Source of the DNA: Bdellovibrionales bacterium RIFOXYA1_FULL_36_14
GTDB taxonomy: Bacteria; Bdellovibrionota; Bacteriovoracia; Bacteriovoracales; Bacteriovoracaceae
Assembly: GCA_001769975.1 (NCBI GenBank)
Contig: MEPW01000007.1
Coordinates: forward strand, 34,734-98,733
Reading direction: 5' to 3'
DNA length: 64,000 nt
Part shown: one piece after another, positions 9,820-30,488 of the stretch
Layout of the letters: each line of letters opens with the position of its first letter
Numbering within the stretch: position 1 is the stretch's first letter
The notes under the pieces: generated by a model
The model's input: the letters and a program-made list of their open reading frames with translations, nothing else
The model's database searches: none
What the model was told of the DNA's origin: nothing
Program-made: the position numbers and the translations under genes

Positions 9820-9857
9820 AAAAAAAATTAAAAAGGGAGGCCAAACACCTCCCTTTT
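9820..9857 (-). terminator. Rho-independent terminator downstream of the C25 peptidase gene
   Basis: Perfect 10-bp stem (aaaagggagg / cctccctttt) with a 7-nt loop, followed on the minus strand by a U-run. It starts 25 nt after the stop at 9882. Confidence 0.8.
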
Positions 9858-9881
9858 ATAGTTTTTTATTGGACGCAACTG

Positions 9882-12800
9882 TTATTGCGCGCCGGTAATC
9901 AAAAGATTGTCAATCCAGGCTCCATCATGACCATCGTCTGCTGAATAATCCTTTTTATAAACCCATTTTAACTCATGAAGACCGGCCGGAACATTAAAGA
10001 ACTCTTCAGACCAAGCTATTTCCCCACTCCAATTACCCGCTTTATCCCCATCCACGTAAAATATCAATTGATCATATTTTGCTTCAGAAGAGACCATCTT
10101 GAAAAAGGAAACACTTCCATCATGAATAAAATTCTTGGTAAGAATTAATTCACTCACACCACTTGCGCCAAGATCCTTTCCACTTCTTGCAGAATATCTT
10201 CCACTGAATGGAAATTCTTCAGTAATCTCCCACGGTTTCTTTCCCGCAAAACGCCACGGATTAGAAGCAAAACTTCCTGTTTCAAAAGTTTCGGTCAACC
10301 CTACGTTAATCAGGCTTTCCATAATTGTTTCAATGTCATCACTGTTAATTTTACATCGAAAACGCGCAATTGTTCCCAGTAAAATATCTTCACCAAATTG
10401 AACTTCGAAATCTATCTGAGCTTCTTGACCAGGAGCTAAACCCGAGATACTGCTTTGGGCATTACCTATATGCACGTTTAATTCTTCTAATTCCTCTAAA
10501 TGATAATAGATTAGTGATGAAGCCACATGCCCGATATTTTTTACAATATATCTAAAAGTTCTAGTTTCACCAGGTTTAATTTCTCCATCTCCCAACAACT
10601 GATTACCAAGAGTAAACTTGGGAGCATTGACTTTTAACGTAAAAGTACTTCGATATTCCTTGCTGGTTTGATCAAGCATCACTAATTGAAATGGAATTAA
10701 ACTTTGATCAATAATACCTTTTTCAAATCTTATCCTAAATCCTTTTTTCAAGGTCACTTTTTGACCACCATTTATTTGAGCTACTTGCTCTTCACTATCC
10801 AGTATAGCGTCGACCGCAGAAGAATCGGTTTCAAGTTTAGCGCGAAGATTTTTTGACATTCCATTGCCAACGTTTTCCAATTCTATCGTTAAATAGATTG
10901 TTTCTCCAACGTCCGCCTGTGAATTATTGCTATCTTCCACCGCATGTTTACTTAAAACAATAAAGGGTCCATTTGGAGGAATCACTTGAACCATCTTTTT
11001 AATCGTTTGAAAATTAAAGCCACTCACCGTTATGTAGGCATCCCCTACTTCCAATTGATTTGCAATTTCAACCCGACCATTTTCATCAGTAATTCCAACA
11101 TAATTTTTATTATTTTGATAAAGCGAAACAATCACATTTTTAACAGGTCCCGATGAATCGCTTACCACTGTTTCAAAAAGAGTACCCATTAAAAGAGTTT
11201 CATTACTGATAGTTAATTTTTTGGGTGTATCACTTCTTACTTGCAAACTAGCATCTCCAAAAATAGTCCAAGTTTTTATAGTATCTAAATCAGGTCCAGT
11301 TGATGATTCAGCATACATTAAACTGGCTGCGTTCATTGTCAAAGATCCAAAAGTACTTCGGTTATTTTGGGTGTTTGTACCATCCCCAGGGTTTTGCTCG
11401 TAATTATAACCGCCAATCAGTAGATCATTAAAATAATCTTGACCTCTCATAGGTGGTGCCCATGGTTGGTTGATAGTTGACATCCAAGCTGCCACGGCTC
11501 CGCCATTTTCTTTTTTAAGCCAAGCTTCGGCAAAAGAATCTCCACCGCTACTATGAAATTCTCCGTTTATACAAGCCACGGAAACAATGAAAGGAAGTTT
11601 TTTACCGTTATTAAGTTGAACAATATCAGAATTCTTAAATCCACTGGTGGCCCAACTAGTCTTACTTCCATGACCAGTATAATTGATAAGGCCAACCCCC
11701 GCATTTAGCCAGTCAGCGACATTGCGTGAATTAACATTTAAAGTGGCATATCCTTCTTCAACTTTCACGTAAGTATTTTTAAGCAGCTTATTGTCTCGAA
11801 TGACTCGCATATGCTGTTCATCGGTTTCTCGATCATCTCCCTGTGAGCCGCCTTCACTGGAAGCTATTCCTACGGCATTTTTATACCAAGTATCACTGGC
11901 ATCAGCATCTCTTTCGTAGGTAATAGTTTTATTGACCTGAGTTTGAATCTGCTCTGGAGTATTGCCTGAAAATCTTCCAACAATTAAATCCGCATAATTA
12001 TCATCCCCTTTTACACATCCAAGCATAGGATCCATAGGTGCTTGAGATGGACCTAAATCAGATTTTAGATCTTCCCAATCCCCAAAAAGCTGAACATACA
12101 AAATATCCTTATCATTTTCGTAGGCCTGTTTAATTACACTTTTAACGTTGGTGCCTTTCACGACCTCTTTTTCTAAAACGGCTAAACCTTTCATTCGCTT
12201 CCATTCAACGTAAGGAGCTACCACCTGTTTATAATGAGCAGGATAGATCACTAGTAATTTTCCATAATCTTTTAAAGGGATATTACTAAGCGATGATGGT
12301 CTTTGATAATTAATAAGCAGAGTTGAATAAATATCTTCCATTTCCGGAATCATTCGTCCACATGTTCCAATCAATGGGTTTACGGGAACTCCGCGACCTT
12401 TTAAAACTCGCACTTCAATTTTTTTATAAACTCTTAAAATTTTTCTTTTGGCATTATATTGAAATGGATAAACATAGATATTGGTTCCTCTTACATCCCT
12501 TAAGACGAAAGGCTTAGAACTTTCGGCAATAGTTTTGGGATACCATTCATCCGTAATTGACTTATTATCTTCAACGTAAGGAAAATCTTCCGGATTTTGA
12601 TTTCTGAGAATAACTCCTTTGGACGGTAACAGCGGATGAGCTAATTGAATGTCCTCATACTCAGTGTCACCAACTTCTGCCAAAACGCTGTCTTTGGGTT
12701 TTAGCTGAATACCTGCATAGATAAATGGTAGTTCGGCAAATCCTTTTTTATTAGTAGTAACATTGCCACCGTAAATTATTTTTGACCAGATACTACTATC

Positions 12801-12971
12801 TGCTTCAACTTCCGAAATGGAATAATCATCTAACTCAAATTTAAGTTGGTAAATTAGATTATTTTTTCCTTCCTCAAATTTGACTTGAAATCCTTTCGCA
12901 GCAAAGGCTTGATTGAATACAAAAATAATTAACAATAAAAAATAAAGAAACAACGACTTCATCTTAACCAT
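9882..12971 (-). CDS. Secreted gingipain-like cysteine peptidase (family C25) with C-terminal beta-sandwich domains
   Basis: Signal peptide present. Catalytic contexts are NYTGHGS (His434, codon 11672..11670) and VSVACINGEF (Cys467, codon 11573..11571). The 33-residue His-Cys spacing matches what I recall for RgpB (His211/Cys244). The tail ends ...GAWIDNLLITGAQ, a jelly-roll-like module. Confidence 0.75.
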   Translation of the reverse strand: MVKMKSLFLYFLLLIIFVFNQAFAAKGFQVKFEEGKNNLIYQLKFELDDYSISEVEADSSIWSKIIYGGNVTTNKKGFAELPFIYAGIQLKPKDSVLAEVGDTEYEDIQLAHPLLPSKGVILRNQNPEDFPYVEDNKSITDEWYPKTIAESSKPFVLRDVRGTNIYVYPFQYNAKRKILRVYKKIEVRVLKGRGVPVNPLIGTCGRMIPEMEDIYSTLLINYQRPSSLSNIPLKDYGKLLVIYPAHYKQVVAPYVEWKRMKGLAVLEKEVVKGTNVKSVIKQAYENDKDILYVQLFGDWEDLKSDLGPSQAPMDPMLGCVKGDDNYADLIVGRFSGNTPEQIQTQVNKTITYERDADASDTWYKNAVGIASSEGGSQGDDRETDEQHMRVIRDNKLLKNTYVKVEEGYATLNVNSRNVADWLNAGVGLINYTGHGSKTSWATSGFKNSDIVQLNNGKKLPFIVSVACINGEFHSSGGDSFAEAWLKKENGGAVAAWMSTINQPWAPPMRGQDYFNDLLIGGYNYEQNPGDGTNTQNNRSTFGSLTMNAASLMYAESSTGPDLDTIKTWTIFGDASLQVRSDTPKKLTISNETLLMGTLFETVVSDSSGPVKNVIVSLYQNNKNYVGITDENGRVEIANQLEVGDAYITVSGFNFQTIKKMVQVIPPNGPFIVLSKHAVEDSNNSQADVGETIYLTIELENVGNGMSKNLRAKLETDSSAVDAILDSEEQVAQINGGQKVTLKKGFRIRFEKGIIDQSLIPFQLVMLDQTSKEYRSTFTLKVNAPKFTLGNQLLGDGEIKPGETRTFRYIVKNIGHVASSLIYYHLEELEELNVHIGNAQSSISGLAPGQEAQIDFEVQFGEDILLGTIARFRCKINSDDIETIMESLINVGLTETFETGSFASNPWRFAGKKPWEITEEFPFSGRYSARSGKDLGASGVSELILTKNFIHDGSVSFFKMVSSEAKYDQLIFYVDGDKAGNWSGEIAWSEEFFNVPAGLHELKWVYKKDYSADDGHDGAWIDNLLITGAQ

Positions 12972-13064: not shown

Positions 13065-14153
13065 TCATTCAAACTTACATTCTAAAAATCCAGGCATATC
13101 ATTGTCTTGGTAATCCTTGGGGTAGGAACTCTTCGACGAGGTAGCTGCGATATATACTTTGGCATCAAAATCAAATTGCTGGTTTAAATAATGCCAGCTG
13201 GTATCAACCGACTGCATTGCATATGGACCTAACGAAAAGTCATATACCTTAGTGTCTGCATCAACTATTTTATTATTTTTTATATATCCATACTTCGCAT
13301 TCAAATGACATTTGACGGGATAAGGACACATATTATAAAAATCTTCTTTGTGAAAAACCTTGTCTACCTTTGTATTATCTAATTTAGCGCCATGACTGCG
13401 AAGGTGTTTAACACATTGGCCGGCATCTTGAAGATATATAACTTTTTTATCGCTGGATTCACTAGCGAGTTCCCCATTATATCCGCATTCTGGTATATCT
13501 ACCTGATTGCTATAAAAGGTTTCCTTAGTTTTTTTGTCAACTAAAAGCAGTCTTAAAAAAGCATTTTCCGATTTTTTTCCCATTTTTTTTAAAGTCACAT
13601 ACTCCGGGGTAATGGAGTAGATCTCAACTTCATTTGATGGAGTAATAACAAATTCGTACTCATAGCGTTCAAGCAACCGATCAAAATTAACCGCTTTGCC
13701 ATTTTTTTGATTAAATTTTATTTTAAATAAACAATCAATCTCAGGCATAAGCTCTATTGTTCCTTGGTCACCCCCGATTTTTTTAAGCTCCGCTTGAATA
13801 AAAGTTAAACGAGAAATTCCACCACTGGTTTCAAATAATGCTCCAGGGTCGATGATTTCGGCTTCAAATAAGTTTTTATCGCCTACTCTTTTTACATTGA
13901 ATGCCTGCACAGGAAAAACAAAAAGTTGCCACTCTCCATCCAATTTTACTCTTAAATTATATTTTTTCCCTTTCAATAAATGTGACTCATCCGTGAATTG
14001 ATTTAAATAATTCACCATCACATCCCAACCATCAACAAATTCACCAATCCATTTGTCTTTAACCCATTTATTATCAATTTGTTTTGTCTCTATCTGAGCA
14101 CAGGAAACTAAAAAATGTAAAAATAGAATTAACGACAAAGTAAAAAATTTCAT
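13065..14153 (-). CDS. Hypothetical lipoprotein
   Basis: 362-aa ORF with signal and lipobox MKFFTLSLILFLHFLVSC. No recognisable catalytic motif. Confidence 0.55.
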   Translation of the reverse strand: MKFFTLSLILFLHFLVSCAQIETKQIDNKWVKDKWIGEFVDGWDVMVNYLNQFTDESHLLKGKKYNLRVKLDGEWQLFVFPVQAFNVKRVGDKNLFEAEIIDPGALFETSGGISRLTFIQAELKKIGGDQGTIELMPEIDCLFKIKFNQKNGKAVNFDRLLERYEYEFVITPSNEVEIYSITPEYVTLKKMGKKSENAFLRLLLVDKKTKETFYSNQVDIPECGYNGELASESSDKKVIYLQDAGQCVKHLRSHGAKLDNTKVDKVFHKEDFYNMCPYPVKCHLNAKYGYIKNNKIVDADTKVYDFSLGPYAMQSVDTSWHYLNQQFDFDAKVYIAATSSKSSYPKDYQDNDMPGFLECKFE

Positions 14154-14257
14154 ATCGTCCTCGTAATTTGCTTGGTATAATCATTCTAATCCATAAGAGA
14201 GAAAGACTTCAACATAATTTCGAAATTATAGATTGGAGAAAAAACGGAGTAACCTGC

Positions 14258-14887
14258 ATGAACACGACCGGAGTGATAATGGCAAGCGGTGAAGGTTCGA
14301 GACTTCACTCCGTCACGCAGATGCTTGGTCTTCCCAAACACCTACTCCCGCTTGGAAAAACTTCTTCGGTAGCACTCATTATTCATGAACTTAAAAAATG
14401 CTGCAATCAAATCATCTTGGTATGCGGTAAAGATGAAAAAAATATTTTTGAAGATAAAATTTTAAGCATTGATCAAAATATTGAGATTATTCCAAAAAAT
14501 AGCTCAGGGTTTGCCGGCGATTATTTAATCGCCCACCAATATGCTCAAAATGAACATATCGTTTTAACGGTCGGAGACATCGTTTTTAAAAAAGATGAAC
14601 TCACTCGTATCATAAAAAAATCGCAAACAAATTTTCCTAAATTCACGCTGGTCTTTGACCACCGTCAAATCATCTCCAAGCTAGATTTTAGAATGGTGGC
14701 AGCCTCCACTAACAAAGAAATGCTACAAATGATCATGCAAATTAATCCCGAATCCTTTAAAGAAGTATCTTCTAATTTTGCTCGACTATTTCTGCAAAAC
14801 AAAGTAAGAGCTGCATTTGCTGAGGTTTTATTCAATCTCAACACTCCTGAAAGTTACGAGCTTGCTAAAAAATATTTTGAAATTTAG
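14258..14887 (+). CDS. Nucleotidyltransferase (MobA-like/NTP_transferase fold)
   Basis: N-terminal GVIMASGEGSRL...LPLGK signature of sugar- or cofactor-nucleotidyltransferases. Start set at ATG 14258, which has GGAG 9 nt upstream. Confidence 0.6.
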   Translation: MNTTGVIMASGEGSRLHSVTQMLGLPKHLLPLGKTSSVALIIHELKKCCNQIILVCGKDEKNIFEDKILSIDQNIEIIPKNSSGFAGDYLIAHQYAQNEHIVLTVGDIVFKKDELTRIIKKSQTNFPKFTLVFDHRQIISKLDFRMVAASTNKEMLQMIMQINPESFKEVSSNFARLFLQNKVRAAFAEVLFNLNTPESYELAKKYFEI

Positions 14888-15080: not shown

Positions 15081-17060
15081 ATGAAAAAGGTGGATCCAAC
15101 TAGCAACTATTCCCTTTCCCTAAAAAACACCGGTTATAAGGAGAGAAAAAAATGCTCTCAAGCTGACTACGATAAATTAGGACTTATCTCCGGTTTGGAA
15201 ATACATCAGCAATTAAAAACCAAGCATAAACTTTTTTGCCAATGCCCATCTGGTATTTTTCAAACTGCAGACGATTACGATGCAGAAATCGTCCGACATA
15301 TGAGACCGACGCTTTCTGAACTTGGCGAATATGATGGAACAGCTTTGATGGAATTTAAAACCAGAAAAGAAATCACCTATCGAATCAAGGATGGCACCGC
15401 TTGCACCTACGACATCGACGATACCCCTCCATTCCCCATCAATCAGGAAGCGGTAGAGCATGCGCTTGAATACGCCATACTACTAGGACTCAATATTGTG
15501 GGAGAGCTCCACGTTGCTAGAAAACAATATTTGGATGGATCAATTCCAACTGGTTTTCAGCGCACTGGTATTATTGGCATTGAAGGCGTATTTCCTATAT
15601 CAAATAAAAAAATTCGCATCATCCAATTATCCATTGAGGAAGATTCCTGCAGAGAAGTAAGTGATATCGGTCATAAACGAATTTACCGTACAGATAGACT
15701 TGGTACACCACTGGTCGAAACGGTCACCTACCCCGACATGACCCATCCAGATGAAGTCCAAGAAGCTGCTCATTATTTACGATATATGGCAAGAGCCACT
15801 TCTAAAATGCGAACTGGTAGTGGCGCTGCAAGACAAGATGTCAATGTAAGTATTACCGGCGGAACCAGAATAGAAATAAAAGGGGTGGCATCCATATCTA
15901 AAATTCCTGACCTGGTTCATATAGAAGCATTTAGACAAAAATCTCTCTTAGTGATTAAAGATATTTTAAATGAAAGAATTGCCGATATCAAAAATTATAA
16001 AATTACTGCCAGAGTTTTAAGATCTGCTAAAAAATATAAATTGGATGCTATTCAAAGGGCCATAAAAGAGCACCAGGAAGTCATGATCGTTAACCTTCCT
16101 CATTTACAAGGTATCCTATCTCACTTTAATCAACCAGATATCACTTTTGCTGATGAATTTAGACATCGACTAAAAGTTATTGCCTGCCTAGAACACCCCA
16201 ATATGTGTCACTCAGAGGAAACTTTAGATTTTATTACTAATAAAGATTGGGATGAAATTCGAGATTACGTTCAAGCCGGACCAAACGATGCACAGATTAT
16301 TTTTTGGGGACCCAAAGAAGATATAAAAACTGCACTCGATACCATTCAAGAGCGCATCGTACTGGCCTATAACGGGGTCCCAAACGAAACCAGAAAGGCG
16401 CTTACAAACGGAATCACCATTTTTGAAAGAGTACTACCCGGTGCTAATAGAATGTATCCTGATACCGACTCTGCTCCCATACCACTGGCAACTAAACGAG
16501 TAGAAGAAATTAAAAAAAGAATACCTCAGACTATAGATAAAAGATTTAAACAATTAACTGATTGGAAAATTCCTCACGATGCCTGGAGTTTTTTATTAAG
16601 ATATAACCTGATACCAATAGTTGAAAATATTATTAATAAAACTGATATTCCTCCCAAATTTGTGGCAACGACCTTTGCTCACCAATTAAAAAATATATTA
16701 GGTAAAAATAAAAAATTTCCCAGCATTTCCGACTTTAAAAAGGTTCAATTTTTATTTGAATTTATTCATGATAAAGAATTGCATTACGAAATTGCCTGGG
16801 ACATGCTCAAGATTGCTTATATTCATCCTAAAATGGATTTCAACTCCATTTTAATCGTCATGGAACACCAGTCTGCTACCTTAGATAAAATTTTAGGTCA
16901 TATTCCCATTTTAAATGATCTTTTCACAAATATCTGCAAAACTAAGCGGGAACACGCGCGAATGGATTGGATCATGGGGCAAATTAGAAAGGCCAGCATT
17001 GGTAACATTCCAATGAAAAAGCTAAATTCCCAGGTGGAAAACGTTATAAAATCGAGGTAG
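15081..17060 (+). CDS. gatE: Glutamyl-tRNA(Gln) amidotransferase subunit E (archaeal-type, GatB paralogue)
   Basis: 659 aa. Contains GLEIHQQLKTKHKLFCQCPS and RKQYLDGSIPTGFQRTG, where GatB has the RKNYFYPD-PK-YQISQ type segment. Also DRLGTPLVE, ARQDVNVSI, a large mid-protein insertion and a YqeY-like tail. Confidence 0.85.
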   Translation: MKKVDPTSNYSLSLKNTGYKERKKCSQADYDKLGLISGLEIHQQLKTKHKLFCQCPSGIFQTADDYDAEIVRHMRPTLSELGEYDGTALMEFKTRKEITYRIKDGTACTYDIDDTPPFPINQEAVEHALEYAILLGLNIVGELHVARKQYLDGSIPTGFQRTGIIGIEGVFPISNKKIRIIQLSIEEDSCREVSDIGHKRIYRTDRLGTPLVETVTYPDMTHPDEVQEAAHYLRYMARATSKMRTGSGAARQDVNVSITGGTRIEIKGVASISKIPDLVHIEAFRQKSLLVIKDILNERIADIKNYKITARVLRSAKKYKLDAIQRAIKEHQEVMIVNLPHLQGILSHFNQPDITFADEFRHRLKVIACLEHPNMCHSEETLDFITNKDWDEIRDYVQAGPNDAQIIFWGPKEDIKTALDTIQERIVLAYNGVPNETRKALTNGITIFERVLPGANRMYPDTDSAPIPLATKRVEEIKKRIPQTIDKRFKQLTDWKIPHDAWSFLLRYNLIPIVENIINKTDIPPKFVATTFAHQLKNILGKNKKFPSISDFKKVQFLFEFIHDKELHYEIAWDMLKIAYIHPKMDFNSILIVMEHQSATLDKILGHIPILNDLFTNICKTKREHARMDWIMGQIRKASIGNIPMKKLNSQVENVIKSR

Positions 17061-18449
17061 GTGATGCTGGATCTATTCAAAGGTTACAAAGGAGAAGCTC
17101 TCCAAATTTTAAAAGATTTCAAATCCAGAGTTTGGAGTGATGCCATTGTTGAAACTAATAACGGTACTTTTAAAGGTATTATTTTACCCAGAAGTGAAAG
17201 CGACGATGACCAACATGTGGTAGTCAAACTTATCACTGGATACAATGTTGGCATAAAAGTAAACACTATAATCAGTATCAAAGAAATAGGTTACAAGGAA
17301 GCTCATTATAAAATACCAGAACAAGATTTCCCTTTTACCGAAGGTCGTCCCAGAGTAAAACTTCTCGGAACTGGTGGAACTATAGCCTCTAGGCTCGATT
17401 ATCGAACAGGCGCCGTTATTCCCGCTTTTTCTCCTGGTGAGCTCTATGGTGCAGTCCCTGAATTGGCTGACATTTGCAATTTAGAAACTGAAAAAATCTT
17501 TGCCGTCTTTAGTGAAAACATGGGTAGTGAACAATATATGAAACTGGCCAAGGCCATAGGCAAAGAAATTGAAAGAGGTATAGATGGAATTGTCATAGGA
17601 CACGGTACAGATACTATGCACCATACAGCGGCTGCTTTATCCTTTATGATTCAAAATCCACCCGTCCCAATTGTCATGGTTGGTTCACAACGTTCATCAG
17701 ACCGCCCATCTTCTGATGCGGCATTAAACCTCATGCACGCTACCAGAACTGCAGCCTACAGCGATATCGCCGAAGTAATGGTGTGTATGTTTGGACCAAC
17801 TTCAGATGAATATGGTCTTTTACATCAAGGAACCAGAGTCAGAAAAATGCACTCTTCATATCGCTCAACTTTTAGAACACTTGGCGATGTTCCCCTTGCC
17901 ACAGTTACAAGAGAAAAAATAACTCCCATCAAAAAAGAATACAATAAAAGGCGTCAATCCCCTGAAGGCATGAAAGTTGTCCCAGCTTGGGAAGACAAGG
18001 TCAGTCTGCTTTATTACTATCCAGACATGAAACCAGACATGATTGATTCTCTCACCGATAACGGATACGTTGGATGCATTATCGCAGGTACTGGACTTGG
18101 ACATGTTAACAAGCCTCTTTATAAGGCCATTGATCGCGCTTACAAAGCTGGTATGCATATCTATATGACTGTGCAAACCCTGTGGGGTTATACTCACATG
18201 AGTGTTTATGAAACGGGTAGAGATTTAATGGCCCTGGGAATAATTCCTCTGGGCAACATGCTTCCAGAAGTTGCCTACGTAAAATTAGCTTGGGCCCTCG
18301 GCCAAAGTCATGACAAAGAAGAAGTTAAAAAAATCATGCTTCATCCTTACTGCGCAGAAATAACCAAGCGAGAACCCTATAACGGCTACCTGGTATTCCA
18401 AGGCGGAATTCCAGAGGTAGAAGAATTTTTAAAGAAGATTCATAAATAG
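17061..18449 (+). CDS. gatD: Glutamyl-tRNA(Gln) amidotransferase subunit D (asparaginase-like glutaminase)
   Basis: Extra N-terminal domain of about 90 aa, then the asparaginase core: LGTGGTIASRLDYRTGAV, GHGTDTMHHTAAALSFM, GSQRSSDRPSSDA, SDIAEVMVCM and GTRVRKMHSS. Starts (GTG 17061 or ATG 17064) immediately after the gatE stop. Confidence 0.85.
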   Translation: MMLDLFKGYKGEALQILKDFKSRVWSDAIVETNNGTFKGIILPRSESDDDQHVVVKLITGYNVGIKVNTIISIKEIGYKEAHYKIPEQDFPFTEGRPRVKLLGTGGTIASRLDYRTGAVIPAFSPGELYGAVPELADICNLETEKIFAVFSENMGSEQYMKLAKAIGKEIERGIDGIVIGHGTDTMHHTAAALSFMIQNPPVPIVMVGSQRSSDRPSSDAALNLMHATRTAAYSDIAEVMVCMFGPTSDEYGLLHQGTRVRKMHSSYRSTFRTLGDVPLATVTREKITPIKKEYNKRRQSPEGMKVVPAWEDKVSLLYYYPDMKPDMIDSLTDNGYVGCIIAGTGLGHVNKPLYKAIDRAYKAGMHIYMTVQTLWGYTHMSVYETGRDLMALGIIPLGNMLPEVAYVKLAWALGQSHDKEEVKKIMLHPYCAEITKREPYNGYLVFQGGIPEVEEFLKKIHK

Positions 18450-22177: not shown

Positions 22178-22753
22178 TTACAAGATAGCTGGTTCATCGA
22201 CGACATCAAAATATCCCCGTGGATGCGCACACGCCAAACAGACTTGGGGTGCCTGAGTGCCCAAATGTATAAAACCGCATTTTCGACAGCGCCATCTGGA
22301 TTTTTTTGACCTTTTATAAAACTCACCTTTTTGCAATTTTCGTCTGATCGCAACGAATCGTTCATAATGGTATTTATCGGCTTCAATGATTGCATCTAGG
22401 ATCTGAGAGATTGTATCTAATCCTTCACTTAGAGCGGTTTTAGAATAAACGGGATAAATTTTATCCCAATCTTTTTTTTCTTCTTGAATTGATAAATTTA
22501 AATTTTCAATTGTGTTTCCAATATATCCTGCGGGAAAACATTCTGTAATTTCCAGATTCCCACCTGGAAGAAGTTTAAAACATCTTTTAGCAAGAATACG
22601 TTCATATTCAGCCGTTTGTTCAAAAACTTGTTCAATTATAGGATGACCTTCTTCCTTGGCAACTTTAGCATAAAAACTATATCGATTTCTGGCCTGTGAT
22701 TTACTCGTAAAAGATTTAAGTAAATTAATTTCAGTAAGACTCCCCTTTAACAT
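22178..22753 (-). CDS. rbr: Rubrerythrin (diiron four-helix bundle plus C-terminal rubredoxin-like CxxC...CxxC)
   Basis: LKGSLTEINLLKSFTSKSQARNRYSFYA is a typical N-terminus. C-terminal WRCRKCGF...CLACAHP. Start at ATG 22753 with GGAGG upstream; the track start 22819 is an upstream GTG. Confidence 0.85.
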   Translation of the reverse strand: MLKGSLTEINLLKSFTSKSQARNRYSFYAKVAKEEGHPIIEQVFEQTAEYERILAKRCFKLLPGGNLEITECFPAGYIGNTIENLNLSIQEEKKDWDKIYPVYSKTALSEGLDTISQILDAIIEADKYHYERFVAIRRKLQKGEFYKRSKKSRWRCRKCGFIHLGTQAPQVCLACAHPRGYFDVVDEPAIL

Positions 22754-22868
22754 ATCGCCTCCATAAAAATATATCAAAAGATTATTAAAAATGCGTAATA
22801 AAAGCAATAGACCTGGCACTGTTAGATATACGAAAACATAAACGATACTTAATCAGGGAAGGAAGATT

Positions 22869-23381
22869 ATGAATAAGCGTGAATTTACTAACGTAAGTGA
22901 TAATGCGTCAGAGGTTTCTAGTCAGTATTTAAGTAAGAATGTCGACTTTTATGACATTATGGATTTTGCCATTTTAAAAGAGGAAGAGGCTTACAATGTT
23001 CTTCTGGGACTATGCAAAAAAATGGAAAATCCCGAAGCTAAAAAGGCATTGAATCGCTTAGCTTCAGAGGAATTGGAACATATAAAAGTGCTCCAAAAAC
23101 TAATTGCGGGGGGCCCAGGGAATTTTAAAGCTACGAAAGTTACATTTGAAAAATATCAAGATCAGGAATTTAGTGATGTATTAAAAGAAGACGCCACGGT
23201 TAAAGAAGTGCTGGAGTTTACTATCGCTAAAGAGAAAGACTCCTATCTATTTTATAATGACATGGCCAGAGCATATAAGGACAAAGAAACCAAGGACACC
23301 TTGATAAATCTGGCTAATTTAGAAAAAGCCCATCAAACCAGATTAGAGAAAATATATTATCGTTATTTTCAACCTAACTAG
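22869..23381 (+). CDS. Rubrerythrin/ferritin-like diiron protein without a rubredoxin domain
   Basis: Two E...ExxH half-sites (EEEAY...SEELEHI and KEKDSY...LEKAHQ) in a 170-aa helical protein. Divergent from rbr. Confidence 0.65.
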   Translation: MNKREFTNVSDNASEVSSQYLSKNVDFYDIMDFAILKEEEAYNVLLGLCKKMENPEAKKALNRLASEELEHIKVLQKLIAGGPGNFKATKVTFEKYQDQEFSDVLKEDATVKEVLEFTIAKEKDSYLFYNDMARAYKDKETKDTLINLANLEKAHQTRLEKIYYRYFQPN

Positions 23382-23395
23382 GAATTATATAAACA

Positions 23396-24658
23396 TCAAT
23401 TGCGTCGATCAATTACGTTCCTCAATTTGCCGGTACGTCGATTTCTCACCAAGTCCTCGTACTCGCAAATTTGGATTTGAATATCACCAATTAGCCCTAG
23501 CTCAACGCTTTCTTGATACATCTTTTTTTCTTTATTAAAAAGTTGATAGAGCAGTTTTATATCACGGCTTAATAACTTAATATTGCCATAATCAGAGGCA
23601 ATTCTCCAAATCAGGAAATCCTTTTGCTTATCATGTTCAATAATAAGCTGGAATCCCATAATCAGATTTTTGTGTGAATAAGATTTTAAAATATTTAAAA
23701 AATCATCTCTATTAACGGTAACTGGTCCTACTCTAGCCCCCACTTCTGATCGACCTTGTAGCAAAAACTTTTCACCCACACTGCTCCATTGGGCCAGATC
23801 TCCCACAGGATATCTTATTATCGGCATTAAAGTTCTCTCTAAATTGGTATAAACTAACTTTCCGACAATGCCTGTTTTAGTAATTGGTTCATTGGTATTT
23901 TCATCCAGTATTTCCATGATTGAATATTGATTAAAACAAACATGTTCTCCAGGTAGACAGGTTTTATCCACAAAGCCAAGATGTCCACCATCAACACTAG
24001 CATATCCAATAGATGAAATAATGACCCCGGGAAAACTATCCTCTAAGACAGCTCTTTGATCTTGGTATAGTCCTTCTCCACCATATAAAATCTTTTTTAC
24101 TGGTAGTTTTAAATTTTTACTACGTACCAAACTTGCCAGATGCATAAATGAAGTGGGCACTCCAGCCAATACATTAATATTCAACTCTTGTAGCACTTCC
24201 AATAAACTAGAATCTGGACATTTCCCTGTTATCGGAAAATGGATAACGGGAGTTTTTGCATATTCCAGAGATTTCATAATAAAGATAAATGAGGCATAAA
24301 GTTCCCCACTATAGAACAAATTAGCAACTCTGTCGCCATGCTTGAGATTACATTGATCCAGCCCTTCTCCAAATATTTTCGTAAACATTTCCCACTCTGT
24401 TTTGGTAAAAAATGAAAACTTAGGATTCCCTGAAGTGCCACCACTTTTAAGCACAATCCCATTATCAATTTCTCCAGTTAGTAACTGATTATTTTCCAAG
24501 GAATTAGCAATCCAGAATTTTTCTTGATCAACGATGGGAAGATCTTGTAACTCAAATTTCTCAATATCTATGTCATAGTATATTTCGCGATAGAAGGGAG
24601 ATTTTTCTCTGACAAATTTAACAAGGTCCTTTAATTTTTCATGTGCATTGGTTTTCAT
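23396..24658 (-). CDS. Adenylate-forming enzyme, phenylacetate-CoA ligase / F390-synthetase (CapK-like) family
   Basis: 420 aa with the P-loop-like motif LKSGGTSGNPKFSFF and overall PaaK-like length. The start overlaps the stop of the upstream fusion gene by 1 nt (TAATG). Confidence 0.65.
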   Translation of the reverse strand: MKTNAHEKLKDLVKFVREKSPFYREIYYDIDIEKFELQDLPIVDQEKFWIANSLENNQLLTGEIDNGIVLKSGGTSGNPKFSFFTKTEWEMFTKIFGEGLDQCNLKHGDRVANLFYSGELYASFIFIMKSLEYAKTPVIHFPITGKCPDSSLLEVLQELNINVLAGVPTSFMHLASLVRSKNLKLPVKKILYGGEGLYQDQRAVLEDSFPGVIISSIGYASVDGGHLGFVDKTCLPGEHVCFNQYSIMEILDENTNEPITKTGIVGKLVYTNLERTLMPIIRYPVGDLAQWSSVGEKFLLQGRSEVGARVGPVTVNRDDFLNILKSYSHKNLIMGFQLIIEHDKQKDFLIWRIASDYGNIKLLSRDIKLLYQLFNKEKKMYQESVELGLIGDIQIQICEYEDLVRNRRTGKLRNVIDRRN

Positions 24659-27129
24659 TATTCTTTTCTCTGGTCTATAACCCGAATTAGCTTGCCGCTT
24701 GACGGGGTTTTTAAAAAATCATTTGCGTCTATTTTTTTTATTTCTAAAATCAACGCATGTTCACTTTTAACCACTTCTAATAAATCGTGATAATTCTTCA
24801 AGATTATTTCCTCTACATCACTTGAAATAATTTTACTCTCATCTAATTTTACTATCAAATGATCTAAACGTTCATTTTTCACTATCTCTATTTGTAACTG
24901 CCCACTGTACGCACACTTTTCACTCAAGATGTTTTCAATAATTTGAAAATTTATAAAAGTACCACCTGCCTTAAAGACATCCCCCAGGCGCCCTTTTAAC
25001 TCGAACATCTTCGCCTTTCTCCCGCAAGCACAAACCCCAGGAATCCATCTACCGACGTCACCAATCTCATAACGATTGATAACTACTGATTCCCGATCAG
25101 GTGTAGTAAAAACGAGCCTACCAATTTCATTGTCCTCAACCGGTTCATCACGAATGAGCTTTAAAATTTCCAAATGATGAATACTGTCGTGTAAATGATG
25201 AACACTTCCCAATGTATGAGGGCACTGATATCCAAGCGGACCTGCATCAACACTTCCATAACTGGCTGACTTAATCAAGCGAATATTAAATTCTTTTTGT
25301 ACCCACTCTTTTTGTTGATTAGTAAAGTGCTCACCCCCATAAAATATTTTTTTTATTCCATTATATTTTTTAAATCGTTCCCTATTGTAATCCAATAATT
25401 GCATTAAATAAGAAGTCATCCCTATTAGTGTATCTATGTTATTTGAGATGATGGTTTCTCCTACAAATTCAAAATTGGGCCACGCCCCCATAGAATATTG
25501 GATGGCCTGCATTTTTTCCAAGACTGTAAAGAAACTGATCATGCCCCCATATAGTCCGCCACCAAAAAAAAGATTTATAACTTTATCACGTCGGGGATCA
25601 AGTCCCGAAGCCACTAGTCCCTCGCTAGCTGCTTCCATCAACAGATTATAATCTGCATAGTTAAAAGAAGAAAGGGCGGTTTTGCCTGAGCTACCGCCAC
25701 TTTTAAAAAATAATTTTGCATATTGAAGGTCATGACTTTGTTTTTGAAAATCATCCTTAGTCATTATTTTTGAGTTGGTGGATTGATTAAAATAATTGGA
25801 AAAATTTATTCTAGACCATCCGTCTAATCCTTCCATGACTGAGCTAACATTTTTAGTAAACGCATGAAGCGGATAAATCCCGTCATGTGCTTCACCTTCG
25901 TAAGTATCCAGCATTTGCCCCACTGGTTTTATCCGGGTAGCTCCAGTTTTTAATAAGACATCTAACACATCAGAAGAATCTTTGAGATTGCCTGCAAATC
26001 CAATCGTCTGTAAATGATTTCTATATTTAAATAATTCAGACAAAATGTGATCCTTTAATAACGGTTTGATCCAGATAGTTCTATTTAATGGGGAGGTTTT
26101 TAGCGCTGAATCGTTTTCGACATAGATACGAAATTTTTTATCCGGTTCTTCCAGTACCAGCGAATCTATCATGATCTCATCAAGTTTAACCAATTCGGTA
26201 ACATTAGTAATTTCTGCCTGGATATCTGCTGGAAGTGATTCTGCTTTTTTGGAGTCAGATTCACTTTTTAAATACTGGTAAAACTCCTTAGCAAATTGCT
26301 TAACCTCTTCGTAGGAATCAGTCTCTAAATAAACGCATTGGGGAGAAGCACATGCTTGTTGTTCCAACCTCACACAATCTTTAGCTAAGTTGCTTAAAGT
26401 TTTCTTATCATGGAAATGAAACTTCGTTATATAAGCAAAGGAAATTTTATGTCCCCAGGTAATCACTTTACATTGGGCAGGTACCATATTTTTTATGTCC
26501 ATGACTGCCGGGTCCCCTCCCCAGACAGAAACCCCGTTAGCGACCGATGCCAACTGAGTCATTATTTCTTTTTGTTTGGAATTAAGTCTTAAAACTATAA
26601 GATGATTCTTGATAAGTCCCGTATCATCCAGATCACCTAATATTTTTAATGCTTTTAAAGAAAAGCTCGAATCTTTACTGGAAACTTTAAGTATATTCAC
26701 ATTACCACTTAACAATCCCTCCAGTGCTGCCAAAAATGCCAGTACATTGGAATTTGAGGGTGTAATGTGCAAGATAATTCCCAGTGGACGTCGACCTTCA
26801 AAAACACAAGCGGTGTCCATATTTTTCTTCAGATCCCAAAAATCGTACCCGCCTAATTCTTTTTTTATTTTATTTTTAAGATTACTCATTTTTAAAAAAT
26901 TTCTTAAAAAATCGATTTCATCTTTCAAGTCTTCCTTTGATAAATGAGCATCGTTTAAATATTCATATAATTGGTCGTCAGTTAACGCTTGATTGAATTT
27001 CTCCAAGGTGTGTGTTACTAACTTTACTGGTAAATTTTGCTTAAGCGAATTTGACATTTCGCAATCTAGTTTTTCAAGATAATTCATTAAACTTAAATCA
27101 TCAATTTCAAGACCTTTCCATAAATGCAT
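24658..27129 (-). CDS. Fusion protein: LuxC-like acyl-CoA reductase (N) plus PaaK/F390-synthetase-like adenylate-forming domain (C)
   Basis: N-terminal part (about aa 1-440): HITPSNSNVLAFLAALEGLLSGNVNILKVSSKD and the catalytic-Cys context EQQACASPQC (Cys260). C-terminal part (from about aa 460): FFKSGGSSGKTALSSF plus a PaaK-like body. 823 aa in total. Confidence 0.65.
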   Translation of the reverse strand: MHLWKGLEIDDLSLMNYLEKLDCEMSNSLKQNLPVKLVTHTLEKFNQALTDDQLYEYLNDAHLSKEDLKDEIDFLRNFLKMSNLKNKIKKELGGYDFWDLKKNMDTACVFEGRRPLGIILHITPSNSNVLAFLAALEGLLSGNVNILKVSSKDSSFSLKALKILGDLDDTGLIKNHLIVLRLNSKQKEIMTQLASVANGVSVWGGDPAVMDIKNMVPAQCKVITWGHKISFAYITKFHFHDKKTLSNLAKDCVRLEQQACASPQCVYLETDSYEEVKQFAKEFYQYLKSESDSKKAESLPADIQAEITNVTELVKLDEIMIDSLVLEEPDKKFRIYVENDSALKTSPLNRTIWIKPLLKDHILSELFKYRNHLQTIGFAGNLKDSSDVLDVLLKTGATRIKPVGQMLDTYEGEAHDGIYPLHAFTKNVSSVMEGLDGWSRINFSNYFNQSTNSKIMTKDDFQKQSHDLQYAKLFFKSGGSSGKTALSSFNYADYNLLMEAASEGLVASGLDPRRDKVINLFFGGGLYGGMISFFTVLEKMQAIQYSMGAWPNFEFVGETIISNNIDTLIGMTSYLMQLLDYNRERFKKYNGIKKIFYGGEHFTNQQKEWVQKEFNIRLIKSASYGSVDAGPLGYQCPHTLGSVHHLHDSIHHLEILKLIRDEPVEDNEIGRLVFTTPDRESVVINRYEIGDVGRWIPGVCACGRKAKMFELKGRLGDVFKAGGTFINFQIIENILSEKCAYSGQLQIEIVKNERLDHLIVKLDESKIISSDVEEIILKNYHDLLEVVKSEHALILEIKKIDANDFLKTPSSGKLIRVIDQRKE

Positions 27130-27138
27130 AATTATTCC

Positions 27139-28299
27139 TTAAAAATTATCCAAAAGCTCAGAAGCTTTCATGGCACAACTTTTGTTTTTAGCTGTTCCCG
27201 CTCTACCCACAATTTCAAACCAGGGAGTCGATAATTCACAATCACAATCACTCCCAGCATGTAAAATAGCCAAATCTCCCATCAATACAGAGTTAGCAGG
27301 CACTGAAGTTATATAGGGTGAAATAAAATTTAAATAACCTACTTGATCAAAGCCTAGTGGCTCTAGATTTTTCACGTCTCTGATAATTATTTGAGACCAC
27401 ACGGGCACATGAAAATGGTGACATTTGCATTCGACATAAGGGATACAGTGCTCCACCGAACCAAATCCGTCCCGGAGTCTTTCATCAGGGATATTTAAGT
27501 ATTCATTGACCAAATTATAAAAAACCTCTTTCTCAATCAATTGATCTTGATGGCCTTTCCAGCCTCCGCCTAAAAATACCAGTGAATCCTTATGTAATTT
27601 GATTGGTGGCATTTTTATTTTTTTCATATGTTCAAGCGTGAAATATAAAAAAGCAGGAAATCCAAAAATTCTCACAGGTAATTTTGCTTCTTCATATTTT
27701 TTCAAAGCCTCAATACAACCAAACAAATCAAACTTATGTTCTCCACCACCAATATTTTTTAGCGCATATGATACTTCTTTGATAGGAGCATATTTGCATA
27801 AAAAATTATCTGTGTAAGATGTACCTAAGTTAAAATTTTTTTCGGGTTCATACGTATACAAAAGATAGTTACATTTTTGTTCAGGTGTAATCCACCCATA
27901 ATAATTAAAAATCAGATCAACCATCCTTTGCGCCGATTTGAGTGACCACTCATCAAAAAATATTTGAGATTTCTGGCCAGTGGTTCCAGAAGAGGTTAGA
28001 TGCAAATAAACGTCTTTTTTATCAATCGAAAGTACTTCATATTTTTTAAAAAAATTTGCAAATATAAAAGGTATTTTATGAATATCCAGAATTGATTCAA
28101 GCATGTGCAAAGAAAATTGTTTTTTAATTAAAAGCTTATGGTAAAAAGTTGATTGTTGGTCATGCCAAGCAATGACTTCTTTGAGGGCATCTACAAAAAG
28201 TGCTTCTGTTTCTTGATTAACACCATAAGGATTTTCCAGCAGGCAAAATGCCTGAACTTTCCCCAGTAGTTCCTGATTAAATATCTCAAGTTTTTCCAA
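27139..28299 (-). CDS. LuxE-like acyl-protein synthetase (adenylate-forming)
   Basis: 386 aa with the motif HLTSSGTTGQKSQIFFD. Size and position directly upstream of a LuxC-like reductase fit the LuxE family. Confidence 0.6.
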   Translation of the reverse strand: MEKLEIFNQELLGKVQAFCLLENPYGVNQETEALFVDALKEVIAWHDQQSTFYHKLLIKKQFSLHMLESILDIHKIPFIFANFFKKYEVLSIDKKDVYLHLTSSGTTGQKSQIFFDEWSLKSAQRMVDLIFNYYGWITPEQKCNYLLYTYEPEKNFNLGTSYTDNFLCKYAPIKEVSYALKNIGGGEHKFDLFGCIEALKKYEEAKLPVRIFGFPAFLYFTLEHMKKIKMPPIKLHKDSLVFLGGGWKGHQDQLIEKEVFYNLVNEYLNIPDERLRDGFGSVEHCIPYVECKCHHFHVPVWSQIIIRDVKNLEPLGFDQVGYLNFISPYITSVPANSVLMGDLAILHAGSDCDCELSTPWFEIVGRAGTAKNKSCAMKASELLDNF

Positions 28300-28474
28300 T
28301 TTTGCTCCCTAGGGAAGGATAAATTTCCCACTATAATTTAACTCTTTTGCCATGTATCATATATAAAGTGGAATAGAGAGTATTGATGAAAAATATTCAC
28401 ACAATCTATCAATTCCAAACTACCGTAAACTACTAATTTTACGGAATTTTTCTCTAAGTATCCATGGAGGGATC

Positions 28475-28909
28475 ATGAGAAAAACAACATTCCTCATTCT
28501 GGCGTCTTTTTTCTTGTGCTTTACCCTTTTAGCAAGGCAACCAGCGGTGGAACCTGTAATGGGTCTTTCCATAGACGAAGAAAAGCCTATTGCGCCAGCG
28601 AAGGCCAAAGGTTATAAATTCAAACCCAATTCGGAAAGAACCAATCGTGAGTTAGCCGCGAATATTTACTCAAACGATGGCGTGAGAGAAACTAAATTAG
28701 ATAAAGGCTCCAATACTTTACCAATAATTTTTATAATCTTTATTTCGGTATTACCAATTATTATCTGGTTTACCATCATCAAAGGGATAAATGTTAAAAA
28801 CTCAAGAAGTCAAAGTGGAAAACTAAAAAATAATCTTTCATTTATTTCTGATTATCAAAACGATAATTTGGAAGATCATGACGACGACAATATTCCCAAG
28901 GCTTCTTGA
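28475..28909 (+). CDS. Hypothetical small membrane protein
   Basis: Signal-like N-terminus, one internal TM helix (LPIIFIIFISVLPIIIWFTII) and an acidic tail. GGAGGG lies 5 nt upstream of the ATG. Confidence 0.5.
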   Translation: MRKTTFLILASFFLCFTLLARQPAVEPVMGLSIDEEKPIAPAKAKGYKFKPNSERTNRELAANIYSNDGVRETKLDKGSNTLPIIFIIFISVLPIIIWFTIIKGINVKNSRSQSGKLKNNLSFISDYQNDNLEDHDDDNIPKAS

Positions 28910-28914
28910 TTAAT

Positions 28915-29559
28915 TTATTTACACACCCACTTACCTTCACCTTGGTACATACATACCTGTGAAATACTAGCATACTTCACTAAGATCTCCTTAACCCCAT
29001 CATGATTCAAATCTTTTAAATCCACCTTGTAGTGGCGACGATGATAGTTTCCATAACTATCTTTTGCTTCAGACCAAAAACTTGGCCCTTTTTGAATGCT
29101 CATTTTCGCAAAACTACCTTTATCAATATTGATAAAGTAGAGTCGACCTTGCCCTTTATAATCAATATACTCTTGCTCTCCAGCATAAAAGTATAAGATC
29201 ATAACATTCGTCTCAGCAGAGAGTTGTTTAATTGAAATTCGGTCCAAAACGGCATTTTTACCAAAGGCATCCAGTTCAAAACTTTTAATTAATTCCCCTT
29301 GGTGGGACAAAATATGCAAAACGTCCCGCCCATTGTCTTTATGGTAAATGATCCCCTCTTTGTATTTGTCTTGGTTTAAATCAACCTTGTAAATCGGCGT
29401 GCTTACTTGTAAGTCATACACCATTTTTTTGATTTCTTTATTTGACTCTTGCAAACGCTCTTGTAAAAGCATCTTCTTGATATACAACTCGTCCTGCGCT
29501 AAAGCCCTCGCTTGCCAAGCGCCCCACCCCAAAATCATAGCAATAAATAAAACCTTCAT
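28915..29559 (-). CDS. Hypothetical secreted protein
   Basis: 214 aa with signal peptide MKVLFIAMILGWGAWQARALA. Has the FG-GAP-like segment DLNHDGVKEILV. Function unknown. Confidence 0.5.
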   Translation of the reverse strand: MKVLFIAMILGWGAWQARALAQDELYIKKMLLQERLQESNKEIKKMVYDLQVSTPIYKVDLNQDKYKEGIIYHKDNGRDVLHILSHQGELIKSFELDAFGKNAVLDRISIKQLSAETNVMILYFYAGEQEYIDYKGQGRLYFINIDKGSFAKMSIQKGPSFWSEAKDSYGNYHRRHYKVDLKDLNHDGVKEILVKYASISQVCMYQGEGKWVCK

Positions 29560-29729
29560 ATCTTCTATTTTAAATTATTGAAAATTCAACGTCCAGAGGC
29601 ATTATATAGCCAGTGCGATTAATCCAAGTAAACTTATCGTAAGGAATTGCTTCCCTAAACACTCAATTTACCCTTGCAGGCCATTAATCTATAGGTTAAA
29701 TTGTTCCTGTTATCGCACTTTAGAAAAGG

Positions 29730-30488
29730 ATGATTATGATTTTCACCATTGGATTAATGAAATCAAAAAATAAGATATTAATTAAAAGCTTTGATCTAAT
29801 CCTTCCAACTTATTTAAAATCAATTACGATAGATGATATCAAGAATGAAAAAGTCAATTTAATGATTCTTGATATATCAGAAAATGAAAACGAAATTATG
29901 TCTCTTTTAGAAGAAGAAAATAAATATTACCCCATATGTGCTGCCTCCACTTTTAATTTAAATGAAGATAGCTTCAATCAACTATCTTTCCATTCAGCTA
30001 GAGATATTATTAAACAAGCTTATTCGACGTGGGTTTTAAATTGCAATTTAAAAAGTATTGAAAATTTATTTACAACCCTCGATCATCTAAAAGAACTTAT
30101 ACCAAACGATCGAATGGATTTTTTTGAAGAATTGTGGTTCATCATTAAAAGAAATTTAGGAGCTATTTCCCTAAAACTTATTTTTAACAGTATCAAACCC
30201 AATGAAAAGGCCCAATCTAAAAACCAACTCATCCAATTTAGAATTGATGGCTCCAGACTTCCTTCCACTCATGTGGGGGATGACTTTGAAAAAAGTCTGA
30301 TGGAAACCTACCGTCCGCAAATGGACAGCTTATTCAATATTACAGAATATGATAAATCCCAAGGGCAAATCGTCATATGCGCTTTAATTAAGGAAAGCCC
30401 GGTCATTATCATGGCCGAGCTTTTTGAGTTTACCAGTATACAAAAATCTTTTCTCACCGCTTTATTTGAAGGCTTACAAAAGATTTAA
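29730..30488 (+). CDS. Hypothetical protein
   Basis: 252-aa ORF. The exact start is uncertain (ATGs at 29730, 29736 and 29757). No recognisable motif. Confidence 0.45.
   Translation: MIMIFTIGLMKSKNKILIKSFDLILPTYLKSITIDDIKNEKVNLMILDISENENEIMSLLEEENKYYPICAASTFNLNEDSFNQLSFHSARDIIKQAYSTWVLNCNLKSIENLFTTLDHLKELIPNDRMDFFEELWFIIKRNLGAISLKLIFNSIKPNEKAQSKNQLIQFRIDGSRLPSTHVGDDFEKSLMETYRPQMDSLFNITEYDKSQGQIVICALIKESPVIIMAELFEFTSIQKSFLTALFEGLQKI

Follow-up and report, generated by a model that had tools for sequence, protein, structure and literature searches.

Organisation of the operon

We analysed a 64,000-nucleotide stretch of DNA (the window) from Bdellovibrionales bacterium RIFOXYA1_FULL_36_14, a member of the Bacteriovoracaceae (contig MEPW01000007.1, positions 34,734 to 98,733). 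On its minus strand the window carries an operon of three tightly packed genes that runs from 28299 to 23396 and is related to the leupeptin (leup) gene cluster. A check of the open reading frames (ORFs) finds all three intact. The features of the operon, in window coordinates, are as follows.

27139..28299, minus strand: LeupA-like LuxE-family acyl-protein synthetase, 386 amino acids (PF04443; BLASTP match to LeupA)
24658..27129, minus strand: LeupB-like LuxC::PaaK fusion, 823 amino acids (PF05893, PaaK models; BLASTP match to LeupB)
25822..27129, minus strand: LuxC-like reductase domain, fusion residues ~1–436 (PF05893; Cys260 in EQQACASPQ)
24658..25758, minus strand: PaaK-type adenylate-forming ligase domain, fusion residues ~458–823 (NCBIfam PaaK models, PDB and fold matches)
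23396..24658, minus strand: LeupC-like stand-alone PaaK-type ligase, 420 amino acids (DVU_1553/PaaK-type models; BLASTP match to LeupC)
28300..28474, no strand: 175-nt intergenic region 5' of the operon, which holds the ribosome-binding site and is shared with the divergent gene 28475..28909

The LuxE-like gene starts with a TTG codon, five nucleotides after an AGGGAG Shine–Dalgarno sequence. A 9-nt gap separates it from the fusion gene (TAA-ggaataatt-ATG), and the fusion gene overlaps the stand-alone ligase gene by 1 nt within TAATG. Coordinates, direction and junctions are as given in an earlier interpretation that used only the letters of the window (the sequence-only reading). A promoter-like hexamer pair at 28464–28436 is a consensus match only, and a promoter and terminator scan around the operon returned scores no better than those of shuffled sequence. 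As that reading also had it, there is no luciferase, LuxD, acyl carrier protein (ACP), thioesterase or alcohol dehydrogenase among the annotated ORFs of at least 150 amino acids between 8.2 and 41.6 kb; statements below on annotated ORFs have the same scope.

Domains, folds and conserved residues

Pfam assigns the first protein to the LuxE family (PF04443, E = 4.5e-34) and residues 33–425 of the second to the LuxC family (PF05893, E = 7.2e-75). The C-terminal part of the second protein (residues ~472–821) matches NCBIfam PaaK models with E-values of 1e-22 and 1e-20, far below their cut-offs, and the third protein matches DVU_1553/PaaK-type models (4e-27 and 2e-21), also below cut-off. Scores are 105.8 bits with the LuxE equivalog model (cut-off 550), 67.5 bits with the LuxC equivalog (750), and 73.5 and 56.2 bits with the PaaK model TIGR02155 (646); overall, scores with PaaK models range from 56 to 80 bits for cut-offs of 646–700. 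Since every NCBIfam match lies far below the curated cut-off, the three proteins are family members and not orthologues of the Lux or PaaK enzymes.

Sequence searches of the PDB retrieve LuxC and LuxE of 7xc6 as well as the PaaK-type proteins BT_0428 (4r1l) and PaaK1 (2y27), with an E-value of 1.7e-21 for the ligase domain of the fusion against 4r1l. The AlphaFold model of the fusion (predicted local distance difference test score, pLDDT, 85.9; predicted template modelling score 0.70) has two folded halves joined by a linker of low confidence at residues 437–445 (pLDDT <50). In fold searches the LuxC half has 7xc6_A as its top match, and the ligase half BT_0428 and PaaK1. The match to PaaK begins at about PaaK residue 83, so that the N-terminal microdomain of PaaK is replaced by the LuxC domain. 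Pfam, NCBIfam and both kinds of PDB search thus agree with the domain calls of the sequence-only reading (LuxE, LuxC plus PaaK, and PaaK), and the two motifs that it cited are present, TSSGTTGQKS at residues 102–111 of protein 1 and SGGTSGNPK at residues 72–80 of protein 3.

The LeupA-like protein aligns with LuxE of P. phosphoreum (7xc6_E) with 78 bits. In this alignment the lysine of the GGGWK motif corresponds to LuxE Lys238, Arg366 to Arg355 and Cys376 to Cys364; the roles of these three LuxE residues have been described, as has the ability of LuxC to accept acyl-CoA as well (PMC9157457). The TSSGTxGQKS loop, the GGGWK lysine, Arg366 and Cys376, which lies ten residues from the C-terminus, are kept in at least 90% of 61 relatives. 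In the LuxC-like domain, Cys260 aligns with LuxC Cys296 and is invariant in sets of 49 and 62 relatives. Likewise, at least 90% of relatives conserve the SGGSSG loop and the C-terminal Gly812-Lys813 of the fusion ligase domain, and KSGGTSGNPK and TGK411 of the stand-alone ligase.

Relatives of the operon

The fusion has hundreds of full-length relatives, with 36–49% identity; for a homologue in Longimycelium, no encoding contig is on record. In a scan of one genome per species we found relatives of the fusion at 454 stretches. Locus counts given here refer to the best 80 of the 454. Partner genes were obtained by clustering all flanking ORFs and homologues were positioned by tblastn, and GNAT statistics cover the 78 loci that are not cut by a contig end and have an intact fusion ORF. 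Outside the actinomycetes, the best 80 loci come from Bacteriovoracaceae/Halobacteriovorax, Obscuribacterales, Elusimicrobiota, Bacteroidales, Azonexus, Contendobacter, Sulfuricellaceae and Oligoflexales; the actinomycete loci are from Streptomyces, Kitasatospora, Kutzneria and Allokutzneria. Most of the Bacteriovoracaceae/Halobacteriovorax genomes sampled carry the cassette. The closest of the 80 loci (L003) belongs to Bdellovibrionales bacterium RIFOXYC1_FULL_37_79, whose three proteins are 82–87% identical to those of the window, and a further relative, L004, has proteins that are only 49–66% identical.

A LuxE-like and a PaaK-like gene lie beside the fusion in nearly every locus, although gene order varies between phyla (tblastn; 81 loci). 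Of the loci, 68 encode a GNAT protein of about 389 residues, in most cases immediately upstream of the LuxE-like gene. It has an N-terminal GNAT domain, and its structural model (pLDDT 89.7) is that of a tandem GNAT, the best full-length fold match being the tandem GNAT of the clavulanate pathway (2wpw). Loci without it (Bacteroidales, Azonexus, Contendobacter, Sulfuricellaceae) encode instead a protein of about 495 residues that combines an RsbW-like domain with a GNAT domain. In total, a GNAT partner is present in 76 of the 78 loci and missing only from L003 and L004, the nearest relatives of the window. An MFS transporter gene occurs in 36 loci and is thus absent from more than half. The neighbourhood comparison that the sequence-only reading had proposed therefore yields a conserved triad (80 loci fetched) that co-occurs with a GNAT gene and often with an MFS gene.

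Besides the cassette genes and ORFs overlapping them, no ORF family recurs across phyla in the fetched loci, and the few flanks sampled with Pfam contained no ACP or sugar-biosynthesis gene. Two ORFs flanking the Kutzneria cassette (L057) belong to glycoside hydrolase families 28 and 18 and are not glycosyltransferases. The conserved partners of the cassette are GNAT proteins and drug-type MFS exporters, not lipid enzymes.

In Streptomyces abyssalis (L049, 13262..17365) the cassette adjoins genes for ATP-grasp, chorismate-binding and AMP-binding proteins, which may form an aryl-acid cluster of their own. A larger actinomycete biosynthetic cluster was considered and rejected, as these neighbours are absent from the other loci.

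Several loci show further peculiarities. In Bacteroidales and some Beta- and Gammaproteobacteria (L054, L030, L036, L039, L058, L059), a GNAT of the LeupD type (see below) forms one protein with an RsbW-like anti-sigma-factor kinase domain. The gene that follows the RsbW-GNAT gene of L054 (12496..13983) encodes a protein that by eye resembles an ECF sigma factor (13977..14585); together, the two hint at a regulatory twist. A protein of about 111 residues, by eye similar to a degenerate receiver domain, is encoded just upstream of the cassette MFS gene in L001 (4059..4394) and 14 other Bacteriovorax loci, and only in Bacteriovorax-type loci. In the metagenome-assembled genome UBA5009 (L026, ~9800..12280), the fusion is not one ORF and only the ligase half is found as a separate ORF, which a frameshift, a faulty assembly or a gene split in two could explain.

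Homology to the leupeptin cluster

Leupeptin is acetyl-Leu-Leu-argininal, and its synthesis needs carboxylate activations, an aldehyde reduction and an N-acetylation. Given three activations, one reduction, an N-acetyltransferase and an exporter, we therefore tested the leupeptin cluster as a candidate. The original biochemical study of the leup operon is reportedly that of Li et al. 2020 (Angew Chem 59:17872).

In K. oxytoca (NC_016612.1), the leup reference cluster comprises genes for an MFS protein, a LuxE/PaaK-family acyltransferase, an acyl-CoA reductase, a member of the phenylacetate-CoA-ligase family and a GNAT (bioRxiv 10.64898/2026.08.25.747093). The genes leupABCD form a 5.8-kb locus (5,831 bp) beside a transporter, and primers in leupA and leupB have been published (PMC8283571). 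The operon makes leupeptin and a derived pyrazinone and has been called narrowly distributed (PMC11480411). According to the literature, the leup gene set of Klebsiella and Photorhabdus makes leupeptin, and Xenorhabdus also carries leupABCD. Literature searches under LuxC/LuxE-type names found no description of the cassette; a paper on tambjamine TabE and a review of ALDHs concern other proteins.

We took Klebsiella-type Leup proteins from metagenome contigs anchored by the published leupA_f and leupB_r primers. The leupA_f site is found on eight contigs, seven of which also carry leupB_r in the expected orientation, at a spacing of 1,235 bp on six and of 1,209 bp on L087; the remaining one (L088) is a locus of only 1.3 kb. 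In order, the contigs encode an MFS protein, a LuxE-family protein, a LuxC::AMP-binding fusion, a PaaK-type ligase and a GNAT. In L084 these are an MFS protein of 419 residues, a LuxE-family protein of 378, a fusion of 803 with the leupB primer site in its gene, an AMP-binding ligase and a GNAT of 305 residues, and the LeupA start and the LeupD stop lie 5,840 bp apart, compared with the published 5,831 bp.

All three window proteins match these sequences in BLASTP searches. The LuxE-like protein is 48% identical to LeupA over 374 residues (E = 7e-139), the fusion 33% identical to LeupB over 830 aligned positions covering residues 1–822 (E = 2e-148), and the PaaK-like ligase 41% identical to LeupC over 422 residues (E = 2e-97). 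The proteins are far closer to LeupA and LeupB than to canonical LuxE (78 bits) and LuxC (40–42 bits). The fusion and LeupB have the same two-domain Pfam pattern, the SCA motif of the LuxE-like protein aligns with LeupA, and the catalytic motifs of all three proteins are common to the window, its relatives and the Klebsiella-type proteins. Since the Klebsiella-type proteins are about equally distant from all fetched cassette members (median identity 38–50%), these and all cassette members form one family.

A search with LeupD gives a match to the GNAT portion of the RsbW-GNAT protein (E = 1.6e-31) and a weak one to the tandem GNAT (1e-7). The GNAT is thus a LeupD homologue, and the idea that it regulates the ligases by lysine acetylation was dropped. 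The Klebsiella-type MFS protein did not match the profile of the MFS proteins of other loci, suggesting repeated recruitment of exporters.

Taken together, we consider it likely, from these homologies, that the operon encodes a leup-type synthetase of short peptide aldehydes that works independently of nonribosomal peptide synthetases (NRPSs), with genes homologous to leupA, leupB and leupC. It has three of the five defining leup components and lacks the GNAT and the transporter; it is a reduced form of the published leup cluster in a Bacteriovoracaceae genome. The sequence-only reading had taken it for an orphan unit, which does not hold given the leup gene set and the fusion relatives at 454 sites. 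Its proposal of an aldehyde-forming pathway is very likely right, both relay cysteines being conserved, but the pathway is not an uncharacterised one: the three-gene unit is already assigned, to the leupeptin leup cluster.

Several points weigh against this assignment. Identity to the characterised proteins is only 33–48%, and the substrates chosen may therefore be different. The contigs anchored by primers are metagenomic, and their Klebsiella origin is deduced from primer matches and cluster length. The 64-kb window contains no match to the tandem-GNAT (c3) or RsbW-like-GNAT (c30) profiles or to Klebsiella-type LeupD, and none to the MFS profile (c6) or the Klebsiella-type MFS protein. With the GNAT, one defining leup component is absent, which leaves an N-terminal cap, if there is one, unexplained. 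Lastly, a preprint ascribes the leupeptin of Streptomyces roseus to an unrelated NRPS cluster, and the presence of the cassette in actinomycetes is therefore no proof of leupeptin production there. This preprint argues for convergent routes to leupeptin and uses the name leupA for an unrelated NRPS gene, so the name has two meanings.

Two sequence features of the family deserve mention. The P-loop of the fusion ligase domain (25680..25700, residues 477–486) reads SGGSSGKTAL in the window and in L003, L004 and L007. In most relatives and in Klebsiella-type LeupB it contains GxPK; the lysine position is alanine in 16 of 62 sequences, Streptomyces included. Furthermore, conserved Cys/His clusters in the LeupA-like protein (C291, H294, H297, C351, C353) and in the fusion ligase domain (C636, H644/H645, C700, C702) are candidate metal sites. 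The cluster is also present in Klebsiella-type LeupA and lacking in P. phosphoreum LuxE and the stand-alone ligase.

A variant without acetyltransferase or exporter

In a comparison with L003, the ratio of nonsynonymous to synonymous substitution rates (dN/dS) is 0.055 for the LeupA-like gene, 0.090 for the LeupB-like fusion and 0.071 for the LeupC-like gene, at a synonymous distance (dS) of about 1.2–1.4. The triad is under strong purifying selection. In the Halobacteriovorax-type loci L005–L013, a tandem-GNAT gene of about 1.2 kb lies between the homologue of the 144-residue gene found upstream of the window operon and the LuxE-like gene. On this basis, the simplest reading is that the GNAT gene was deleted in the lineage of the window. 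As the GNAT-less state is shared with the divergent locus L004, the triad has persisted without an adjacent GNAT over a long divergence; we may be looking at a working variant, or the GNAT may lie elsewhere in the genome.

Since there is neither a LeupD-type acetyltransferase nor an adjacent exporter, the product may be an uncapped or differently capped peptide aldehyde. One elaboration is that the triad is a functional variant of a likely predatory member of the Bacteriovoracaceae, making peptide aldehydes with a free or otherwise uncapped N-terminus that could cyclise to pyrazinone-type signals or control proteases in the cell or the prey during predation, within a leup family far wider than the gammaproteobacterial range described. 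We regard this elaboration as speculative and rather unlikely in its full extent.

A possible route to a peptide aldehyde

The domains can be arranged into a pathway. The stand-alone LeupC-like ligase and the C-terminal ligase of the fusion would join amino acids or N-acyl amino acids in ATP-dependent reactions to a di- or tripeptide acid, the two PaaK-type units forming two peptide bonds. The LeupA-like protein would then adenylate the C-terminal carboxylate of the peptide and load the acyl group as a thioester onto Cys376 in its flexible C-terminal tail. From there the acyl group would pass to Cys260 of the LuxC-like domain, where reduction of the thioester by NAD(P)H would yield the peptide aldehyde, which in leupeptin-class protease inhibitors is the warhead. 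We infer this assignment of steps to domains.

Three carboxylate activations and one reduction are also what an acyl-tripeptide aldehyde would seem to need. Leup-type chemistry would therefore account for the ratio of three activating domains to one reductase, with two ligations and one reductive activation. The sequence-only reading had all three domains feeding the reductase; most likely only one does so, and the other two form peptide bonds. The route fits work on Streptomyces roseus in which Suzukake, Hori and Umezawa (1978–1981) reportedly found an enzyme that acetylates leucine, a synthetase that makes leupeptin acid with ATP and a reductase that acts on this acid with ATP and NADPH.

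Alternative explanations

The Lux-like domains raise the possibility of a fatty acid reductase whose long-chain fatty aldehydes or alcohols would serve lipids, waxes or signalling, and whose acyl-CoAs would come from the extra ligases. Membership in the LuxE and LuxC Pfam families and the conserved relay cysteines would fit, as would the acceptance of acyl-CoA by LuxC (PMC9157457). But the equivalog scores (106 and 68 bits for cut-offs of 550 and 750) are low, the leupeptin enzymes are much nearer relatives of the proteins than Lux proteins are, the annotated ORFs nearby include no luciferase, LuxD, ACP or acyltransferase, and the conserved partners are GNAT and drug-type MFS proteins without lipid enzymes; we consider such a reductase quite improbable. 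A set of ligases for aryl or other non-amino acids, leading to an aryl ester or amide aldehyde, is improbable too. Its models are NatL2, AjiA1, BagE and ClxA, which join aminohydroxybenzoates, and the PaaK-type domains do match NatL2 (6siw), AjiA1 (6wuq) and ClxA (9s3l) in sequence and fold, and BagE/FevW weakly. The Leup proteins are matched more strongly, however, and chorismate or aminobenzoate genes are not conserved neighbours, Streptomyces abyssalis being the single case. The fatty or aryl acid substrates envisaged by the sequence-only reading are thus not supported.

Non-luminous LuxC/LuxE homologues are known from glycan loci (PMC7874193; PMC4772473, which cites Morona et al. 1995), and the operon might by analogy encode an acyl-modification module for a surface glycan, as with RfbN of Vibrio cholerae (tetronate on the O-antigen) or the LuxC/LuxE genes of Aeromonas flagellin glycosylation islands. 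We think this extremely improbable: only the cassette genes recur across phyla in the fetched loci, the sampled flanks are free of ACP and sugar-biosynthesis genes, and around the operon in the window the annotated ORFs include no ACP, glycosyltransferase or sugar-biosynthesis gene, the neighbours being housekeeping genes (rho, prfA, a murA-type gene, a DEAD-box helicase). Among loci with intact flanks, a GNAT partner is missing only from the window, L003 and L004, as would be expected of a decaying remnant, a triad left without a useful product once GNAT and exporter were lost. Decay is nevertheless very improbable in view of three intact ORFs with every catalytic motif present, dN/dS values of 0.055–0.09 at a dS of about 1.2–1.4 relative to L003, and a GNAT-less layout that is shared with L004 (49–66% identity) and hence long-lived.

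Genomic context

Downstream, the operon is followed by genes for a ferritin-like/rubrerythrin-domain protein (22869..23381) and a rubrerythrin (22178..22819). The sequence-only reading was right that these genes adjoin the operon, but only the closest relative, L003, has them there too, and a functional tie was rejected for this reason. On the other side are three genes with no match in Pfam (144, 214 and 252 amino acids; 28475..30488), which hold their place beside the cassette across Bacteriovoracaceae-type loci (L003–L013, L031, L034, L045, L077), with or without the GNAT. As this synteny is confined to the Bacteriovoracaceae and extends to loci where the GNAT is present, we also rejected a tie between these genes and the operon.

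The wider flanks are ordinary chromosomal DNA, with genes for a DEAD-box helicase, a GatE/GatD-like pair, a HIT protein, a MurA-type enzyme, a PrmC-like methyltransferase, RF-1 (prfA) and Rho. The G+C content is even across the window, at about 0.35, and the PADLOC defence models gave no match.

Two other loci of the window may be noted. On the plus strand (15081..18449), a gene for a 659-residue protein with a GatB/GatE catalytic domain and a large insertion is directly followed by one for a 462-residue protein with GatD_N and asparaginase domains; the pair looks like an archaeal-type GatDE amidotransferase in a bacterial genome. On the minus strand (9882..12971), 11 kb from the operon, lies a gene for a 1029-residue Peptidase_C25 (gingipain-family) protein with a propeptide. 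Leupeptin inhibits Arg-gingipains, and a link between this protein and the putative peptide-aldehyde operon is conceivable.

Significance and comparison with known systems

The apparent oddity of LuxC and LuxE without luciferase, with three ligase domains for one reductase, can now be read as a recognizable pathway in which discrete ligases would make peptide-aldehyde protease inhibitors independently of NRPSs. The leup family occurs in Bdellovibrionota, Obscuribacterales, Elusimicrobiota, Bacteroidales, actinomycetes and Betaproteobacteria, and its breadth, especially within the Bacteriovoracaceae, seems wider than the narrow distribution stated in the literature (PMC11480411). The core triad, kept under strong selection without acetyltransferase or exporter, points to a different product or to a different, perhaps intracellular, use. 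Protease inhibitors from bacteria that digest other bacteria would be an evident subject of study.

The leupABCD system of Klebsiella michiganensis/oxytoca, Photorhabdus and Xenorhabdus agrees with the window operon in its three core proteins and their order, with identical catalytic motifs, including the C-terminal cysteine of LeupA and the cysteine of QQAC(S/A)SPQ in LeupB. It differs from the window operon in having a LeupD-type GNAT and an MFS protein, in its gammaproteobacterial as opposed to Bacteriovoracaceae hosts, and in the P-loop of the LeupB ligase domain, GxPK compared with GKTA in the window fusion.

The LuxC–LuxE complex (7xc6; PMC9157457) shares with the window proteins the folds, the two-cysteine acyl relay, the GGGWK lysine and the LuxE active-site arginine, but its subunits are only distant paralogues (78 and 40–42 bits). 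Unlike in Lux, the LuxC domain of the window is fused to a ligase domain. In contrast to luxCDE, no luxA, luxB or luxD is linked to the window operon among the annotated ORFs, and LuxE of P. phosphoreum is without the Cys/His cluster of the LeupA-like protein.

With PaaK-family ligases (PaaK1, 2y27; BT_0428, 4r1l; and NatL2 and AjiA1, relatives that form bonds), the window ligases have in common the fold, the SGGxxG loop and the catalytic Gly-Lys at the C-terminus. They are distinct from PaaK of the paa catabolon, as their scores are far below the equivalog cut-offs and no paa genes occur nearby among the annotated ORFs.

Carboxylic acid reductases and the terminal reductase domains of NRPSs combine adenylation, a thioester carrier and NAD(P)H reduction to produce an aldehyde. 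The window operon follows the same logic with an unrelated reductase fold, and whereas those enzymes use a phosphopantetheine carrier, its carrier would, by analogy with the Lux complex (PMC9157457), be the tail cysteine of the LuxE-family protein. The operon therefore uses a LuxCE-like last step but is not a Lux system, and it uses PaaK-fold ligases but is not a phenylacetate pathway.

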